Below, in pieces: positions 1-6,540 of a DNA stretch of 6,540 nt. The stretch lies in IMG/VR virus record IMGVR_UViG_2711768000_000006; one strand, 5' to 3'. A model generated the notes under the pieces. That model searched no databases. It was not told the origin of the DNA and saw only the letters and a program-made list of their open reading frames with translations. The first letter of the stretch is position 1; every line of letters begins with the position of its first letter. Source of the stretch: a virus (Duplodnaviria > Heunggongvirae > Uroviricota > Caudoviricetes). The position numbers and the translations under genes were made by a program.

Positions 1-107
1 CTCTCGTCTGGGGAATATCTCCCCGGCAGCCTTCAGGGAAAAATATCATCAGATGGCTGCTTAAAAAAAGAACAAATGGTAGTGTCCGCTATTGCCAGTA
101 CACCTCA
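1..107. repeat. Left arm of a perfect 107-bp inverted repeat (partner 6434..6540)
   Basis: Bases 1-107 are the exact reverse complement of 6434-6540, compared base by base; identity stops at 108 versus 6433. The arm holds 75 bp of upstream sequence plus the first 32 nt of the ORF starting at 76. Confidence 0.95.
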
Positions 108-306
108 TCCATCACCGAAAAAAATTGGCTTTTACACCATTGGCGATAAAAGCATTTACCTGTATGACCTACGCCGCATGGATGAAATCATGGAGGCTCT
201 TGATAATCGTTCGTCGATGGATTGGTGTGTTGCTGTTCATGATATGAATGCAGGGTTTGATGAAAAGATTTTGTTCCCCTCATCAGTTGAAAGCACTGCG
301 GGTTAA
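76..306 (+). CDS. Hypothetical protein, 76 aa; its 5' end lies inside the left inverted-repeat arm
   Basis: ATG-initiated ORF from the six-frame track. No clear Shine-Dalgarno upstream (A-rich aaaaaagaacaa). Co-directional with downstream genes. Product not recognised. Confidence 0.35.
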   Translation: MVVSAIASTPHPSPKKIGFYTIGDKSIYLYDLRRMDEIMEALDNRSSMDWCVAVHDMNAGFDEKILFPSSVESTAG

Positions 307-316
307 GGAGTAACAC

Positions 317-484
317 ATGACCACTATTACCAAAGAACGTATTGAATTGTTCATTAAAAACCCGCTTGAAAACGGGCTTACCCGTGGTGAACAAATGGAA
401 CTGGCACGGATTGCGCTGGCATCGCTGGAAGCAGAGCCGGTTGTGTTCTGGTTTGAAAAATATCAAGAAGGGGCTACGGCATGA
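317..484 (+). CDS. Hypothetical small protein, 55 aa (nin-region type)
   Basis: ATG at 317 preceded by a strong SD AAGGAG (305-310). The stop TGA (482-484) overlaps the next ATG (481-483) in an ATGA arrangement, suggesting translational coupling. Below the 60-aa cutoff of the ORF track. Confidence 0.45.
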
Positions 485-825
485 CGACTTTTACCAGAGA
501 GCAGTTAATAGCTCACGCAGAGGAGACTATTGAAGCACAGAGACTGTGCATACCGGGCACAATCGACCATGACATCATCCGCACATATAAGATGGATATT
601 GCTGTTCTGGAAATCGCACTGGTATCGCTGGCAGCAGAGCCAGCCGGTAAATTGCATGAATACAAACCAGTGGGATATCAGCGTCTGGTCGATGAGTTAA
701 CCATGCTGGTAAAGCAGTTAACCTGGCAACTGAGGAAAGCGAAGCCAGACTGCAAATTACCGGATAAGGCGATGAGTTATCTGGAGCGGAACGGACTGAT
801 AAGCGTGGAGGATATTTTACGATGA
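481..825 (+). CDS. Hypothetical protein, 114 aa
   Basis: ATG overlaps the stop of the upstream ORF (ATGA), with a GAAGGGG SD-like stretch 7 nt upstream. Its stop overlaps the start of the next small ORF. Product not recognised. Confidence 0.5.
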
Positions 826-905
826 CCTGGCCTGAAGCATTAACAACGGTAGGAATTGCGATGGCGGTGGCGCTGGTGGTGTATTCGATTTGCCGCTGGG
901 GATAA
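822..905 (+). CDS. Possible 27-aa hydrophobic peptide ([27 protein letters not shown])
   Basis: ATG 822-824 overlaps the TGA 823-825 of the upstream ORF. The predicted peptide is dominated by a single hydrophobic helix. Very short, so speculative. Confidence 0.25.
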
Positions 906-912
906 AAACGGT

Positions 913-940
913 TTGCGGGAAAAGGAGAGTTAAGTAGAAT
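913..940 (+). promoter_or_regulatory. Candidate sigma70 promoter for hok mRNA (-35 TTGCGG 913-918, -10 TAGAAT 935-940)
   Basis: 16-bp spacer. The predicted start near 947 coincides with the 5' segment (947-958) that is complementary to the 3' end of the locus. Confidence 0.3.
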
Positions 941-1004
941 TGCAGCGGGTGCTTGAGGCTATCTGTCTCAGGCATGAACACCAAAAGGCAGATAGAGAAA
1001 AGCC

Positions 1005-1068
1005 CCAGTTAACATTACGCGTCCGGCAAGACGCTTAACATTAATCTGAGGCTCAATCTATGAACGGC
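1005..1068 (-). ncRNA. Predicted Sok-like antisense RNA covering the mok-like translation initiation region (boundaries approximate)
   Basis: Minus-strand promoter-like elements: -35 TTGCCT (complement of 1098-1103) and -10 TAACCT (complement of 1075-1080), 17-bp spacer. The transcript would be antisense to the SD and ATG at 1047-1062. This matches the known architecture of hok/sok loci. The 3' end is not defined by a clear terminator. Confidence 0.3.
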
Positions 1069-1116
1069 AAATCTAGGTTAGCCTCTTACGTGCCGAAAGG
1101 CAAGGAGAAGCAGGCT

Positions 1117-1272
1117 ATGAAGCAGCAAAAGGCGATGTTAATCGCCCTGATCGTCATCTGTTTAACCGTCATAGTGACGGCACTGGTAACGAGGAAAGAC
1201 CTCTGCGAGGTACGAATTCGAACCGGCCAGACGGAGGTCGCTGTCTTCACAGCTTACGAACCTGAGGAGTAA
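1117..1272 (+). CDS. hok: Hok/Gef-family type I toxin, 51 aa (HokD/RelF-like)
   Basis: Translation MKQQKAMLIALIVICLTVIVTALVTRKDLCEVRIRTGQTEVAVFTAYEPEE has the Hok-family single transmembrane helix and the conserved TRKxLCE and EVAxF motifs. SD AGGAG lies 9 nt upstream. An in-frame upstream ATG at 1060 with its own SD (mok-like) gives the 70-aa ORF in the track. Confidence 0.9.
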   Translation: MKQQKAMLIALIVICLTVIVTALVTRKDLCEVRIRTGQTEVAVFTAYEPEE

Positions 1273-1341
1273 GAGACCAGGCGGGGGAGAAATCCCTCGC
1301 CACCTCTGATGGGGCAGGCATCCTCAATGCACCCACACTTA

Positions 1342-1367
1342 ACCCGCTTCGGCGGGTTTTTGTTTTT
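1342..1367 (+). terminator. Rho-independent terminator at the 3' end of the hok transcript
   Basis: Stem CCCGC (1343-1347), loop TTCG, stem GCGGG (1352-1356), followed by TTTTTGTTTTTATTTT. Confidence 0.6.
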
Positions 1368-1380
1368 ATTTTCAACGCGT

Positions 1381-1410
1381 TTGAAGTTTTAGATGGTGCC
1401 GGAATAGAAT
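1381..1410 (+). promoter_or_regulatory. Candidate sigma70 promoter (-35 TTGAAG 1381-1386, -10 TAGAAT 1405-1410)
   Basis: 18-bp spacer, located just after the hok terminator and about 80 bp upstream of the ORF starting at 1493. Confidence 0.35.
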
Positions 1411-1492
1411 CAAAAATACTTAAGTAGCGCGCAGGGAGAAGAGGGATGGACCCCGAACAGGGGAGTGCTATTTATCTGGAAGGATTCTGTTG

Positions 1493-1774
1493 ATGAAAAT
1501 CGAAGAATTACGTGAAATTTTTAGTGAAGATGGCCTCTATACTGTGCGCGTTGAGAATGGCGCTATTGTCAGCCACTGCCTTCCAGACTACACAATTCTG
1601 ATAATTCAGCCGTCTTTGCCAGCAGGCACGGGCGGCGCTCTCACGCATTTAAATCTGATTGGTACCAGCATCCCCCATGCACTGAAGAACAGGCCGAATG
1701 GCTCATTCAGTGTTACCGCAGGCGCGGATGCGAGGTTAAAAAAGCCCTTAGCCTCGACTACCGTCACTGGATAA
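1493..1774 (+). CDS. Hypothetical small protein, 93 aa; position matches rem of Qin-type prophages
   Basis: ATG at 1493 with SD GGAAGGA 8 nt upstream (the track starts at the preceding TTG, 1490). The C-terminal half has atypical composition, so the true 3' end is uncertain. The rem assignment is positional only (between hok and the DUF968 gene). Confidence 0.4.
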   Translation: MKIEELREIFSEDGLYTVRVENGAIVSHCLPDYTILIIQPSLPAGTGGALTHLNLIGTSIPHALKNRPNGSFSVTAGADARLKKPLASTTVTG

Positions 1775-1849
1775 TCTCCGTCAGGCTCCCTTACTCCGAA
1801 CGGCCAACGCGTCCGTCCCGCACATTCCAGCAACGGATCTGGAGGTAAT

Positions 1850-2908
1850 GTGCGGGTATTACTTCGACCTGTTCTGGTACCGGAACTCGGTCTGGTTATC
1901 GTTAAGCCAGGCCGTGAATCAATGTCAGCATTCCATAACGGCAGAATACTGGTGGAGCCGGAACCAAAAAGCATGCGTAATCTGCCGTCCGGGGTCGTTC
2001 CTGCCGCTCGCCAGCCGCTGGTGGAAGACAAAACATTGCTGCCGTTTTTCAGTAACGCACGGGTGATTCGTGCTGCTGGTGGTGCTGGTGCATTGTCTGA
2101 CTGGCTGTTGCGCCATATTAAATCCTGCCAGTGGCCACACGGCGATTATCATCACAGCGAAACCGTCATTCACCGTTATGGTACCGGCGCAATGGTGTTG
2201 TGCTGGCACTGCGACAACCAGCTGCGTGACCAGACATCCGAATCACTCGAGCAACTTGCTCATCAAAACCTGTCAGCATGGATGATTGACGTCATCGGTC
2301 ACGCAATAAGCGGTACGCAGGAGCGTGAATTATCTCTGGCTGAATTATCCTGGTGGGCGGTCCGCAATCAGGTGGCGGACGCGCTACCGGAAGCGGTATT
2401 ACGTCGTTCGCTGGGGTTGCGTGCGGAAAAAATTCGCTCTGTGTACAGTGAAAGCGACATCATACCGGGAGAGCAGACAGCCACCAGCATACTGAAGCAG
2501 CGCACAAAAAATATTGCGTTACTGCCTCACGTCCACCAGCAACAGAACCCACCACAGGAAAAGACGGTGGTCAGCATTGCCGTTGATCCGGAGTCACCGG
2601 CTCAGTATCTCCAGCGCCAGAAATCACAACGGGAAGAGATGCCTGTATACACGCGCTGGGTAAAAACGCAGAAATGCATGACGTGTGGCAATCAGGCAGA
2701 TGATCCGCATCACATCATTGGTCATGGACTGGGAGGGATGGGAACAAAGGCTGATGATTTGTTTGTTATTCCGTTATGCCGTAAATGCCGTAACGAACTA
2801 CATGCCGGAGTAAAAGATTTTGAAGAGAAACACGGCAGTCAGCTGTTGTTGCTGATTCGTTTTTTAATGCACGCGAGAAATTCGGGTGTTCTGAAGTGGA
2901 AAGCATAA
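1850..2908 (+). CDS. DUF968/YdfU-like prophage protein with a C-terminal HNH-like Cys/His motif
   Basis: 352-aa ORF. The C-terminus contains CMTCGNQADDPHHIIGHG...PLCRKCRNELHAG (CxxC...HH...CxxC...H). GTG start at 1850 follows GGAGG (1841-1845); an alternative ATG is at 1922. The stop TAA is immediately followed by the rusA ATG. Family assignment is from memory of YdfU-like proteins. Confidence 0.7.
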   Translation: MRVLLRPVLVPELGLVIVKPGRESMSAFHNGRILVEPEPKSMRNLPSGVVPAARQPLVEDKTLLPFFSNARVIRAAGGAGALSDWLLRHIKSCQWPHGDYHHSETVIHRYGTGAMVLCWHCDNQLRDQTSESLEQLAHQNLSAWMIDVIGHAISGTQERELSLAELSWWAVRNQVADALPEAVLRRSLGLRAEKIRSVYSESDIIPGEQTATSILKQRTKNIALLPHVHQQQNPPQEKTVVSIAVDPESPAQYLQRQKSQREEMPVYTRWVKTQKCMTCGNQADDPHHIIGHGLGGMGTKADDLFVIPLCRKCRNELHAGVKDFEEKHGSQLLLLIRFLMHARNSGVLKWKA

Positions 2909-3289
2909 ATGACCGAGCGCATAGAATTTGTTTTACCTTACCCGCCGACGGTGAACACTTACTGGCGTCGTCGTGGCAGCACATATTTTGTATCAAAAGC
3001 CGGGGAGCGTTATCGCCGGGCAGTGGCGCTTATTGTTCGCCAGCAGCGGCTGAAATTAAGCCTGTCCGGAAGGTTGGCAATAAAAATTATTGCAGAACCA
3101 CCGGATAAGCGCCGCCGTGACCTGGACAATATTCTGAAAGCGCCGCTGGATGCGCTGACGCATGCGGGGTTGCTAATGGACGATGAGCAGTTTGATGAAA
3201 TCAATATCGTTCGTGCTCAGCCAGTATCTGGTGGACGTCTGGGGGTGAAGATTTATCCCATAATGCTTGAAGGGCAGGTCAAAAAATGA
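2909..3289 (+). CDS. rusA: Crossover junction endodeoxyribonuclease RusA (Holliday junction resolvase)
   Basis: 126-aa product with RusA hallmarks: N-terminal LPYPPTVNTYWRRRG, the catalytic-region motif PDKRRRDLDNILKAPLDALTHAG, and C-terminal GGRL. Lies directly upstream of the Q candidate, as in lambdoid prophages. Confidence 0.9.
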   Translation: MTERIEFVLPYPPTVNTYWRRRGSTYFVSKAGERYRRAVALIVRQQRLKLSLSGRLAIKIIAEPPDKRRRDLDNILKAPLDALTHAGLLMDDEQFDEINIVRAQPVSGGRLGVKIYPIMLEGQVKK

Positions 3290-4107
3290 AACTGGAAGAT
3301 TTACCGAAATACTACTCCCCAAAATCCCCCGGCCTGACTGATGCATCGGCCTCAACGTCGAAAGATGCGCTGAGTATCACTGATGTGATGGCCGCGCAGG
3401 GCATGACACAGAATCGGGCTGAGATGGGGGTTTCTGCGTTCCTTGGGAAAATGGGCATTAGTATGAATGACAGAGAGCGGGCAACAGAATTGCTGACAGA
3501 ATATGCACTCAGTCGGTGTGATCGCGTGGCGGCGTTAAGAAAACTCCCGGCAGAAATAAAACCGGCAGTGATGCGTATTATGGCTTCGTATGCGTTTGAA
3601 GATTATGCCCGTAGCGCGGCGAGCAAAAAACAGTGCCCCTGCTGTCACGGAAAAAAATTTATTGAAAGCGAGGTTTTTACAAACAAGATCCAGTATCCGG
3701 ATGGTAAGCCGCCGGTATGGGCAAAGTGTACGAAAGGTGTGTATCCGTCTTACTGGGAAGAATGGAAAAAAGTCAGGGAGGTGGTAAAAGTTGCCTGTCC
3801 GGAGTGTGGCGGAAAGGGTGAGGTTTCCACCGCCTGTAAGGATTGCCGTGGGCGTGGTGTCGCCATTCATCGTGAAGAGTCGGTAAAACGTGGTATGCCT
3901 GTTATCAGAGACTGCCAGCGTTGTGGTGGTCGTGGCTATGAAAGACTACCATCAACGGAGGCATTTAATGCTATATGCGAGGTGACAAACCAGATAACAC
4001 GCGCGTCATGGGAAAAAACAGTTAAGAAATTTTATGATGCGCTGGTGACCCGGTTTGATATTGAAGAAGCATGGGCTGAGCGGCAGTTAAAAAAGGTAAC
4101 TAGGTAA
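3286..4107 (+). CDS. Putative late-gene antiterminator Q with DnaJ-like zinc-finger repeats
   Basis: 273-aa ORF whose ATG overlaps the rusA stop (ATGA). Contains CPCCHGKK plus three CxxCxGxG motifs (CPECGGKG, CKDCRGRG, CQRCGGRG). Sits between rusA and a pR'-like promoter and terminator, the canonical Q position. The assignment is positional plus motif-based, not a confirmed match. Confidence 0.6.
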   Translation: MKLEDLPKYYSPKSPGLTDASASTSKDALSITDVMAAQGMTQNRAEMGVSAFLGKMGISMNDRERATELLTEYALSRCDRVAALRKLPAEIKPAVMRIMASYAFEDYARSAASKKQCPCCHGKKFIESEVFTNKIQYPDGKPPVWAKCTKGVYPSYWEEWKKVREVVKVACPECGGKGEVSTACKDCRGRGVAIHREESVKRGMPVIRDCQRCGGRGYERLPSTEAFNAICEVTNQITRASWEKTVKKFYDALVTRFDIEEAWAERQLKKVTR

Positions 4108-4112
4108 CAAGG

Positions 4113-4140
4113 TTGATTTTTCCGGAATCTGTGGTAAATT
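4113..4140 (+). promoter_or_regulatory. pR'-like late promoter (-35 TTGATT 4113-4118, extended -10 TGgTAAATT 4132-4140)
   Basis: 16-bp spacer. The -10 TAAATT with an upstream TG resembles the lambda pR' -10. Begins 6 bp after the Q stop. Confidence 0.5.
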
Positions 4141-4187
4141 CGTTATAACGATGGGCGTTTTATGCCTGACGTTAGAAGAGTTTCTAC

Positions 4188-4212
4188 AACCCGCCGCCGA
4201 GCGGGTTTTTTA
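4188..4212 (+). terminator. tR'-like rho-independent terminator ending a roughly 65-nt leader RNA
   Basis: Stem AACCCGC (4188-4194), loop CGCCGA, stem GCGGGTT, then a T-run (4206-4211). Lies about 50-65 nt downstream of the predicted pR' start, analogous to the short terminated late leader of lambdoid phages. Confidence 0.55.
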
Positions 4213-4331
4213 TGACTGAAATCGCGTCAGTACAGTAAACGCGCTGGTGGCGGTGAATACCTGTCTTTCAGCTTGCTGGCTTTTTCGACAAGAGTTATTG
4301 GTGTGTCACGTTAACCGGAAAAGGAAAAGAC

Positions 4332-4529
4332 ATGCTAAAACAGCAGGATATGACAGAAACCGCCAGAGTGGTGTTTAATGAATTAAGCGTTACCGAACCG
4401 GCGACAGTCGGGGAGATAGCGCAGAATACTTACCTTTCACGCGAACGCTGCCAGTTAATACTGACCCAGCTGGTTATGGCGGGTCTGGCAGACTATCAGT
4501 TCGGTTGTTACAGACGCCTTCCGCAGTGA
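4332..4529 (+). CDS. Small hypothetical protein, 65 aa, possible winged-helix DNA-binding fold
   Basis: ATG with SD AAGGA 6 nt upstream. The segment VGEIAQNTYLSRERCQLILTQLVMAGLADY resembles a helix-turn-helix or winged-helix. A terminator-like hairpin overlaps the stop. Confidence 0.45.
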   Translation: MLKQQDMTETARVVFNELSVTEPATVGEIAQNTYLSRERCQLILTQLVMAGLADYQFGCYRRLPQ

Positions 4530-4540
4530 AGGCTTTTTTA
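4516..4540 (+). terminator. Rho-independent terminator-like hairpin overlapping the stop of the 65-aa ORF
   Basis: Stem GCCTTC (4516-4521), loop CGCAGT, stem GAAGGC (4528-4533), followed by TTTTTTATTT. Confidence 0.45.
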
Positions 4541-4558
4541 TTTGTGGTAAATGGGCGG

Positions 4559-4585
4559 CTGGTGGGTGTTAGGGGCACCCACCAG
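4559..4585. other. Perfect 10-bp stem-loop (CTGGTGGGTG / TTAGGGG / CACCCACCAG) in the leader upstream of the methyltransferase gene
   Basis: Exact reverse-complement arms at 4559-4568 and 4576-4585, with no T-run afterwards. A second near-palindrome lies at 4629-4647 (CTGCTTTGC GCAAAAGCAG). Confidence 0.5.
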
Positions 4586-4679
4586 CCATCTGCTCATGCG
4601 TTGGGTTCACAAGCAAACCTCAGGCCCACTGCTTTGCGCAAAAGCAGAATGAGCCTATCAGAGACAGGCTTAATGATCC

Positions 4680-5738
4680 ATGCTTAATACTGTAAAAATA
4701 TCCAGTTGTGAGTTAATCAACGCCGACTGCCTGGAATTTATCCGGTCGTTACCCGAAAATTCTGTTGACCTGATAGTCACGGACCCGCCGTACTTTAAAG
4801 TGAAGCCTGAGGGCTGGGATAACCAGTGGAAGGGCGACGATGATTACCTGAAGTGGCTGGACCAGTGTCTGGCGCAGTTCTGGCGGGTGCTGAAACCTGC
4901 CGGAAGTCTTTACCTGTTCTGTGGTCATCGCCTGGCATCTGATATCGAAATCATGATGCGTGAACGCTTCAGTGTGCTGAACCATATTATCTGGGCGAAG
5001 CCGTCCGGACGCTGGAACGGATGCAACAAGGAAAGCCTGCGGGCGTATTTCCCCGCCACAGAGCGCATTCTGTTCGCGGAACATTATCAGGGGCCGTATC
5101 GTCCGAAAGATGCCGGGTATGCGGCGAAGGGCAGTGCACTGAAACAGCATGTGATGGCCCCGCTGATTTCTTACTTTCGTGATGCGCGAGCTGCCCTGGG
5201 GATAACGGCAAAACAGATTGCAGATGCCACAGGAAAGAAAAACATGGTGTCGCACTGGTTCAGTGCCGGTCAGTGGCAGTTGCCGAATGAAAGCGATTAT
5301 CTGAAATTACAGGCGCTGTTTGCCCGGGTGGCAGAAGAGAAGCATCGGCGTGGTGAACTGGAAAAGCTCCACCACCAGCTGGTGGATACGTATACCTCAC
5401 TGAACCGGCAGTATGCGGAGCTGCTGAGTGAATATAAACATCTGCGGCGGTATTTTGGCGTGACGGTGCAGGTGCCGTATACCGATGTGTGGACGCATAA
5501 ACCGGTGCAGTTCTATCCCGGGAAACATCCGTGCGAAAAACCGGCAGAAATGCTGCAGCAGATAATCAGCGCTAGCAGTCGTCCGGGTGACCTGATTGCA
5601 GATTTTTTCATGGGGTTGGGTTCGACAGTGAAAGCGGCACTGGCGCTCGGGCGTCGTGCAATTGGCGTTGAGCTGGAGACTGAACGTTTTGAGCAGACGG
5701 TTCGGGAAGTACAGGATTTAGTCAGCCAGAACGGATGA
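4680..5738 (+). CDS. DNA amino-methyltransferase (N6-adenine or N4-cytosine), beta-class motif order, no adjacent restriction enzyme
   Basis: 352-aa ORF with motif IV DLIVTDPPYF near the N-terminus and the AdoMet-binding motif I DFFMGLGST near the C-terminus (motif IV before motif I). The long middle region contains an HTH-like segment (LGITAKQIADATGKK). No cognate endonuclease ORF is present. Confidence 0.85.
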   Translation: MLNTVKISSCELINADCLEFIRSLPENSVDLIVTDPPYFKVKPEGWDNQWKGDDDYLKWLDQCLAQFWRVLKPAGSLYLFCGHRLASDIEIMMRERFSVLNHIIWAKPSGRWNGCNKESLRAYFPATERILFAEHYQGPYRPKDAGYAAKGSALKQHVMAPLISYFRDARAALGITAKQIADATGKKNMVSHWFSAGQWQLPNESDYLKLQALFARVAEEKHRRGELEKLHHQLVDTYTSLNRQYAELLSEYKHLRRYFGVTVQVPYTDVWTHKPVQFYPGKHPCEKPAEMLQQIISASSRPGDLIADFFMGLGSTVKAALALGRRAIGVELETERFEQTVREVQDLVSQNG

Positions 5739-5778
5739 TATTGAAGAATTAATTACGCGTCGTTATTATGCGGCTCCC

Positions 5779-5854
5779 GGCCCTTTAGCTCAGTGGTGAG
5801 AGCGAGCGACTCATAATCGCCAGGTCGCTGGTTCAAATCCAGCAAGGGCCACCA
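5779..5854 (+). tRNA. tRNA-Ile2 (anticodon CAT, lysidine type), ileX/ileZ-like, with encoded CCA
   Basis: Manual cloverleaf: acceptor GGCCCTT/AAGGGCC, D-arm GCTC..GAGC, anticodon loop CTCATAA, T-arm GCTGG TTCAAAT CCAGC, discriminator A, CCA. Closely resembles E. coli ileX as recalled. By anticodon alone it could also be scored as Met. Confidence 0.8.
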
Positions 5855-5861
5855 TCACATA

Positions 5862-5938
5862 CCGCCATTAGCTCATCAGGAAAGAGCGCCAGCCTTCGAA
5901 GCTGGCTGCGCGGGGTTCAAGTCCCCGATGGCGGTCCA
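5862..5938 (+). tRNA. tRNA-Arg (anticodon TCG), with encoded CCA
   Basis: Manual cloverleaf: acceptor CCGCCAT/ATGGCGG (7 perfect pairs), D-arm GCTC..GAGC, anticodon stem CCAGC/GCTGG with loop CTTCGAA, T-arm CGGGG TTCAAGT CCCCG, discriminator T, CCA. The C1-G72 start is unusual but it folds cleanly. Confidence 0.7.
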
Positions 5939-5951
5939 TTATCTGCATCAT

Positions 5952-6009
5952 GCGTTGTTAGCTCAGCCGGACAGAGCAATTGCCTTCTAAGCAATCGGTC
6001 ACTGGTTCG
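5952..6009 (+). pseudogene. 3'-truncated tRNA-Arg (anticodon TCT), argU/argO-like; breaks in the T-loop
   Basis: Acceptor 5' strand GCGTTGT, D-arm GCTC..GAGC, anticodon stem ATTGC/GCAAT with loop CTTCTAA, and the T-stem 5' strand ACTGG followed by TTCG are intact. The expected T-stem 3' strand and acceptor 3' strand (ACAACGC) are absent and replaced by CTTTTGCGGGCCTTTTTTTT. Confidence 0.6.
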
Positions 6010-6227
6010 CTTTTGCGGGCCTTTTTTTTAAATGTCTCACAATTCAGACGGTTGACAGTTGTCTGTTTTGCGGGGAGTTTGTTAAAAGAAACTGGCATGG
6101 TGAATCCCCCTGTGCGGAGGGGCAATCAGCGAGTAGGTATATGGGATAATCGCGGATTCAGGTGCTGGTACTGAATTCACCGGGAGGCACCCGGCATCAT
6201 GCAATGGCACATAGCGCCACTCTCCAG

Positions 6228-6250
6228 CCCTCTCCGGAGGGGCTTTTCTG
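6228..6250 (+). terminator. Weak terminator-like hairpin (CCCTC / TCCG / GAGGG followed by GCTTTTCT)
   Basis: 5-bp GC-rich stem with tetraloop and a short T-rich tail, in an otherwise ORF-free region. Weak. Confidence 0.25.
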
Positions 6251-6433
6251 TGCCGGATACATCACAGTTTCTGGAACCTTAGGTACTACAGTATCAGTCA
6301 GGGTGCTATATTTTCAGATGTGATGAAAGCCTGTCAGCAGGCAGGGCGTATCGGAAATGACCCAGTAGAGAAAACGTTGACTCAGATACCGGTGCTGAGT
6401 TACCGGGAAACCGGCATCACATGACCGCTATCC

Positions 6434-6540
6434 TGAGGTGTACTGGCAATAGCGGACACTACCATTTGTTCTTTTTTTAAGCAGCCATCTGATGATATTT
6501 TTCCCTGAAGGCTGCCGGGGAGATATTCCCCAGACGAGAG
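6434..6540. repeat. Right arm of the perfect 107-bp inverted repeat (partner 1..107)
   Basis: Exact reverse complement of 1-107. Read on the minus strand it reproduces the upstream region and first 32 nt of the ORF at 76, then continues as only a 21-codon ORF (complement 6400-6465). Confidence 0.95.

Follow-up and report, generated by a model that had tools for sequence, protein, structure and literature searches.

Work on the hok/sok family, a textbook example of type I toxin-antitoxin systems, goes back to the 1980s. The copy on R1 is plasmid-borne and serves in post-segregational killing. The mRNA switch of this founding member (parB) has been summarised (PMC9841398), and a close prophage homologue, hokW/sokW, has been tested in its Sp5 copy by Takada et al. 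(PMC8621323). HokW stopped growth, and sokW expressed from its own promoter prevented HokW toxicity. Both hokW and sokW RNAs were visible on northern blots, sokW RNA being detected in Sp5 lysogens; smaller hokW RNAs were also seen and were left unassigned. Mutation of the −10 region, in which the primer YO-421 replaces sequence, silenced sokW, and protection was lost. The sokW RNA disappeared after mitomycin C in a RecA-dependent manner, and deletion of the hokW/sokW locus delayed lysis and halved phage release (all PMC8621323).

We analysed a stretch of 6,540 nt (the window) that was part of a lambdoid prophage, with all named genes on the + strand. Small ORFs with no Pfam match (76–825) were followed by a hok locus (about 912–1368), a rem-like ORF (1490–1774), DUF968/YdfU (1850–2908), RusA (2909–3289), the Q antiterminator (3286–4107) and an N6/N4 DNA methylase (4680–5738); two tRNAs and an STnc100 sRNA lay downstream of the methylase gene (5779–6255). 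The two ends of the window (1–107 and 6434–6540) were perfect inverted copies of 107 nt each that matched the terminus of IS600 (IS3 family), a sequence that recurs up to 43 times in an E. coli genome, and the ORF at 76–306 was chimeric, starting inside IS600. Collinear prophage DNA was restricted to 108–6433, and thus the window held a prophage fragment flanked by a pair of IS600 copies in inverted orientation; it is probably a contig that broke at these repeats.

An earlier note, made by a reader without tools, had described a Hok/Sok-type locus in the nin region with no relBE genes upstream. Both points of placement held: hok was located upstream of DUF968, RusA and Q on the same strand, and RelB/RelE families were undetected in a Pfam scan of the three upstream ORFs (zero matches). 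The locus is very probably an intact, hokD-type representative of the hok/mok/sok family of type I toxin-antitoxin systems, lying within the nin region of a lambdoid prophage fragment that resembles Qin and Rac. This family identity was based on matches to Pfam HOK_GEF and Rfam RF01794, a Hok peptide identical to HokD and a DNA identity of 92.7% to the 933W locus. All sequence elements were present, namely both promoters, tac, ucb, dcb, both Shine-Dalgarno (SD) sequences, both ORFs, fbi and a terminator.

For comparison, one genome per species was scanned, yielding 53 related loci. Forty-three complete units were aligned (MAFFT, alignment A2). Covariation was counted in 42 of them, which belong to the enterobacterial genera Escherichia, Kluyvera, Citrobacter, Pseudocitrobacter, Photorhabdus, Pantoea, Erwinia and Kalamiella, the row of a P1-like plasmid (L059, coordinates off by 5 nt) being left out of these counts and kept in the 43-row alignment and in the counts for mok.

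The hok toxin gene (1117–1272, + strand) encoded 51 aa, identical to K-12 HokD (RelF). A mok frame of 70 aa (1060–1272, + strand) was in frame with hok and had the same stop codon, and its product matched Pfam HOK_GEF (PF01848) at 3e-23 (81.6 bits, cutoff 22). The mok SD GAGG (1048–1051, + strand) stood 8 nt before the ATG at 1060, and the hok SD AAGGAG (1102–1107, + strand), read from the sequence, 9 nt before its own ATG. The 51-aa Hok-family toxin and the in-frame mok start with its own SD, both proposed in the earlier note, were thereby borne out. In the alignment of 43 sequences the GAGG columns of the mok SD were invariant and a CAAGGAG block over the hok SD was nearly so. An in-frame ATG at exactly −57 with GAGGC upstream was present in 27 of the 43 related loci and absent from the others; on this survey the in-frame mok arrangement is common, yet not universal. 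The exact 70-aa Mok/Hok sequence was found in 18,190 blocks of a public collection, and in the six places shown its neighbours, co-oriented with it, were always replication genes on one side and DUF968-(RusA)-Q on the other.

The loci in which AAGGTCAAGG carried an extra T (L003 at 3131–3344, L012, L059 and the Kluyvera loci) lacked an in-frame ATG upstream of hok. Only one of them, L003 (Rac442), had an annotated mok, which stopped 7 nt before the hok stop, and therefore mok was in another frame there. Within the mRNA, the most variable 10-column block lay at 1063–1071 (0.84 bits, against ≤0.3 in most blocks), as calculated from a small sample of seven closely related hokD/hokW-type loci. This block encoded mok codons 2–4 and the first nucleotides of Sok, a pattern that diversification preventing cross-reaction between paralogous hok/sok copies of one genome would give.

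The DNA of mokW/hokW/sokW of phage 933W was 92.7% identical to the window over 439 nt, and the combined MokW/HokW product was 89% identical. Both loci combined a 51-aa hok with an in-frame mok of 70 aa and an antisense RNA of 71 nt, the latter predicted in the window, and both had identical tac sequences and identical sok promoter boxes; the fbi sequences differed solely at the bulged base (T in the window, C in 933W). Differences were seen in Mok codons 2–5, which encode the first Sok nucleotides (MNGKS in the window, MLNTC in 933W), and in the last residues of Hok (TAYEPEE in the window, VDYESEK in 933W). The 933W locus occupied the attR end of its prophage, on the int/pL strand, whereas that of the window was in the nin region, and 933W lacked the hairpin terminator that follows fbi in the window.

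Over 1103–1560 of the window, including fbi and the terminator, the hokD (relF) DNA of the K-12 Qin prophage was 94.5% identical, and the downstream neighbours (a rem-like ORF, DUF968/ydfU and Q) were the same. Homology to Qin took in fbi and the terminator as well as the rem-like ORF, and resumed in DUF968/ydfU. It started only at 1103, inside the hok SD, upstream of which K-12 had relB-relE; tac, ucb, the mok start, the Sok body and the sok −10 box were all missing from K-12 hokD. Since the K-12 match began at 1103, K-12 lacked the whole leader and the window had the intact form. Compared in this way, the window copy appears to be complete and self-regulated, with only the toxin end left in K-12, and this copy is a clear example of the intact form from which K-12 hokD descends. 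A relBE-linked hokD context was rejected for the window because the K-12 homology begins only at 1103.

In its predicted elements and logic the window locus was the same as R1 hok/sok, with a tac/fbi stem, the ucb and dcb boxes, a metastable hairpin at the 5′ end, coupling of hok translation to mok, and a Sok antisense RNA encoded in cis (PMC9841398). R1 Hok and HokW, the latter closely related to the window Hok, are only 44% identical (PMC8621323). IncF-type plasmid loci resembled the window only in a 47-nt block (1075–1121, 87% identity), and the rest was unalignable. The comparison with R1 rests on the literature because the 3′ end of the IncF plasmid hok locus in our set (L058) was replaced and its fbi was absent. 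The chromosomal hokC (gef)/mokC/sokC locus of E. coli was about 74% identical in DNA across leader and ORF, with an identical tac, mok in frame and an antisense RNA annotated at the equivalent place. It had a shorter sokT hairpin, without the 18-nt insert at 1019–1036 of the window. The hokC-type loci in other Escherichia species kept tac/fbi; in K-12, hokC had an IS186 just downstream and the fbi motif was absent.

A putative hok promoter (912–940, + strand) consisted of a −35 box TTTGCG (912–917), a 17-nt spacer and a −10 box TAGAAT (935–940) that ended 7 nt before the predicted mRNA start at 947, the boxes being read from the sequence. Its −35 box was weak (3/6 consensus matches). A −10-like hexamer (TAGAAT, TATAAT, TATATT or TAGTAT) was equally spaced from GGG in nearly all related loci. 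A consensus sigma-70 scan of 800–1500 missed the hok promoter as well as that of sok, since one hexamer in each had only 3/6 matches; both promoters were placed by homology and fixed spacing.

The full-length hok mRNA was predicted to run for about 420 nt from this GGG to the T run of the terminator (947–1368, + strand). Homology among more than 50 related loci started at about 935–947 and stopped at 1334–1337, right after fbi. A terminator scan found an intrinsic terminator (1341–1368, + strand) with a 7-bp stem and a 4-nt loop (1341–1358) followed by a T run, in agreement with the clean terminator after hok that had been noticed earlier. RNAfold gave −169.5 kcal/mol for 947–1368 (z = −6.9 against dinucleotide shuffles). 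When the whole-mRNA structure was laid on the alignment, 83.9% of cells were paired, against 38–47% with partners slid by 1–3 columns, and 32 pairs were changed on both sides, a number reached by none of 500 shuffles. A conserved GC-rich stem-loop in the 3′ UTR (1280–1301, + strand; helix 17 of the 43-unit alignment) had 97.7% of cells paired and 3 pairs changed on both sides. By inference from R1 (PMC9841398), it is probably the 3′-terminal hairpin of the processed (truncated) mRNA.

The tac element GGGTGCTTGAGG at the 5′ end of the mRNA (947–958, + strand) was complementary to the fbi element CCTCAATGCACCC (1322–1334, + strand) by 6 + 6 Watson-Crick pairs with T1328 bulged, exactly at the coordinates given from the letters alone; such a fold-back is thus recognisable to a tool-less reader. 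Its counterpart in R1 hok mRNA is the published tac/fbi stem. The helix was present in both the minimum free energy (MFE) and the centroid folds of 947–1368, with pair probabilities of 0.90–0.999. Among all 12-mers between 900 and 1047, that at 947 was the best, and the duplex of tac with the 3′ UTR (−21.1 kcal/mol) beat 4989 of 5000 dinucleotide-shuffled 3′ UTRs.

In all 42 homologous loci the tac/fbi helix was kept, with compensatory changes, so that the 5′-3′ complementarity proposed in the earlier note was conserved. The pair 950:1331 was U-A in 27 loci, C-G in 12 and U-G in 2, and was unpaired in 1. The pair 958:1322 switched between G-C and A-U, and 957:1323 did likewise, once. In Photorhabdus the bulge was absent and tac/fbi formed a perfect 12-bp helix. 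A raw count in the 43-row alignment gave 89.8% of cells paired for this helix (helix 1), an underestimate because MAFFT set the Photorhabdus fbi one column off for pairs 7–12.

Folding gave tac three mutually exclusive partners: 1322–1334 (fbi), 965–975 and 1000–1006. In a fold of the first 39 nt (947–985), 949–959 paired with 965–975 (+ strand) as a metastable nascent hairpin. In a fold of a 64-nt transcript, 947–954 paired with 1000–1006 as a tac/ucb stem. Position 950 covaried with both 974 and 1331: the combination at 950/974/1331 was T/A/A in 27 of the 42 loci, C/G/G in 12, T/G/G in 2 and C/G/A in 1. Such three-way covariation is the pattern expected if the 5′ end swaps partners over time. 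All three alternative tac pairings were thus predicted by folding and conserved with compensatory changes, and the relatives from Photorhabdus, Kluyvera, Pantoea and Erwinia add covariation data on the three-way tac switch.

The ucb (anti-SD) box AAGCCCCAG (1000–1008, + strand) paired with tac in the Rfam consensus structure as well as in the 64-nt fold, and its columns A53–C59 were invariant in the 43-unit alignment. When tac was forced to be unpaired, ucb (1001–1008) covered the mok SD region (1046–1053). The dcb box AGCCTC (1080–1085, + strand) paired with GAGGCT (1048–1053) over the mok SD. This helix (helix 7) was present in the full-length MFE fold and in the Rfam consensus, its pairs being conserved in 42–43 of 43 units, and by this measure 1080–1085 is the predicted conserved partner of the mok SD. 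An MFE helix of 1002–1007 with 1310–1315 was dropped as a candidate ucb/dcb pair; it was specific to the window, with 40% of cells paired. The whole-molecule MFE folds of 3′-truncated mRNA (ending at 1321 or 1328) contained no tac/ucb stem and paired tac with 1315–1323, so that support for the tac/ucb switch comes from the partial folds and the consensus structure of the Rfam family. The partial folds reproduce, as a model, the published R1 scheme (PMC9841398) in this copy.

The Rfam covariance model RF01794 matched 947–1122 end to end (112.4 bits against a gathering score of 59). Although named ‘sok’, this family matched the strand of the hok mRNA, over the stretch that begins with the transcript start and ends at the hok AUG, and it has the open leader fold as its consensus structure; the predicted antisense RNA lay on the opposite strand, inside 947–1122.

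The position of Sok was taken from an alignment with the sokW misc_RNA annotated in 933W, which gave a predicted antisense RNA of about 71 nt (998–1068, − strand). The predicted Sok had a single-stranded 5′ tail, a long hairpin and a U-rich 3′ end; the minus-strand fold of 994–1068 (−31.4 kcal/mol, z = −5.2) consisted of the hairpin followed by GGGGCUUUUCUCU. Its span took in the mok SD and ATG and was nearly that foreseen for an antisense RNA across the mok start (1005–1068). The predicted sok promoter (1075–1103, − strand) had a −35 box TTGCCT (1103–1098), a 17-nt spacer and a −10 box TAACCT (1080–1075), the latter matching the consensus at only 3/6 positions. From the −35 box through the −10 box the window and 933W were identical, and a AGGCAAGGAG block at the sok promoter was nearly invariant in the 43-unit alignment. 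The minus-strand promoter-like element of the earlier note was thus supported by homology to sokW of 933W, as an element weak by consensus.

Taken over from R1 and 933W, the proposed mechanism is as follows. A weak promoter would make a stable mRNA of about 420 nt from 947. During synthesis tac would be held in the local metastable hairpin (949–959 with 965–975). In the finished mRNA tac would pair with fbi, leaving ucb (1000–1008) free to cover the mok ribosome-binding site (1046–1053), so that neither mok nor hok would be translated and Sok binding would be blocked. Slow trimming from the 3′ end would remove fbi, upon which tac would switch to ucb and expose the mok SD. The exposed mRNA would be bound by the short-lived antisense Sok (about 1068–998, − strand) and destroyed. 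Once Sok was exhausted, mok would be translated, allowing translation of hok, and the 51-aa Hok would damage the inner membrane.

Could the 5′-3′ complementarity be a chance match of two GC-rich 12-mers with no structural role? The helix has just 12 pairs with a bulge, and 11 of the 5000 shuffled 3′ UTRs equalled it. Against this, both sides co-vary in other genera at 3 of the 12 pairs, the same 5′ position covaries with a second partner too, homology to distant loci ends exactly where the 3′ element ends, and the pair probabilities are high throughout. The likelihood of chance complementarity is practically nil, and this explanation was rejected as already refuted by the comparative data. That the locus is a decaying relic, intact in appearance yet unexpressed or non-toxic and with no present role in an IS-bounded fragment, is a different matter and one we consider very unlikely. 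Relatives do decay: K-12 hokC has an adjoining IS186 and no fbi motif, K-12 hokD is without its whole leader, and fbi is degenerate in a hokC-type copy from Shigella (L049); the prophage DNA here is itself cut on both sides by IS600. However, every element is intact in the window, Hok is identical to K-12 HokD, and the recurrence of the exact 70-aa Mok/Hok in 18,190 blocks argues for selection and against drift. Despite its intact look the copy could be silent, since the fragment is bounded by IS600 and several chromosomal hok loci of K-12 are inactive.

With the locus read as an intact hok/mok/sok member, its role here could be maintenance, help in lysis or exclusion. What has been demonstrated for a prophage copy is limited to earlier lysis with a twofold higher phage release after induction (PMC8621323), and this single prophage-copy experiment points to lysis help after induction, not to maintenance or exclusion. 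One idea beyond the literature is that the locus is a switch coupled to prophage induction, and not a maintenance device, with read-through lowering Sok. It comes from the orientation and placement of hok. In every context seen, the hok sense strand was co-directional with N-antiterminated early phage transcription; hok shared its strand with Q and lay in the nin region both in the window and in nine other prophage contexts (L002, L003, K-12 Qin and L061–L066), and it was at attR on the int/pL strand in 933W, where a pL transcript would reach hok only after excision and circularisation. Upon induction, read-through would meet the sok promoter head-on, lower Sok and release Hok early. Coupling of this kind could tie Sok loss to induction and, if true, would account for the RecA-dependent disappearance of sokW RNA, for which Takada et al. 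offered no explanation; we regard it as unlikely.

A match to 906–1370 was found in 4933 of 5426 complete E. coli genomes, at a median of 2 and a maximum of 9 places per genome, and PGAP annotated it there as hokD. Matches were also present in 110 phage records and in P1-like and other plasmids. The locus is therefore ordinary, matching most of these genomes and having a close homologue, hokW/sokW, that has been tested (PMC8621323), and it is already known, being annotated automatically as hokD in thousands of genomes.

Downstream of the methylase gene, the tRNA at 5779–5854 was called as Met (anticodon CAT) by ARAGORN; in the RefSeq genome L002 the leading tRNA of this pair, at the homologous position, was annotated as tRNA-Ile, as is the ileZ-type tRNA of Stx phages. 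After tRNA(CAT) and tRNA-Arg(TCG) there was a third tRNA-like sequence (5959–6024) with the anticodon loop TCT. It scored 22.5 bits (Rfam tRNA threshold 29), was uncalled by ARAGORN, and in place of its 3′ part there was apparently a GC stem with a T run, resembling a terminator. Downstream of the tRNAs, 6066–6255 was a full-length match to STnc100 (RF02076, 123.6 bits), adjoined by a second match below threshold (6294–6482, 21.8 bits).

Between related prophages (L061–L066), the slot directly upstream of hok (about 6000–7950 in the coordinates of those loci) differed in its cargo, which included a SIR2-like protein (L061), a RES-domain protein and Peptidase_U49 (L062), QueH (L064) and an IS21 element (L065). 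This slot looks like a variable cargo site beside a constant hok locus.
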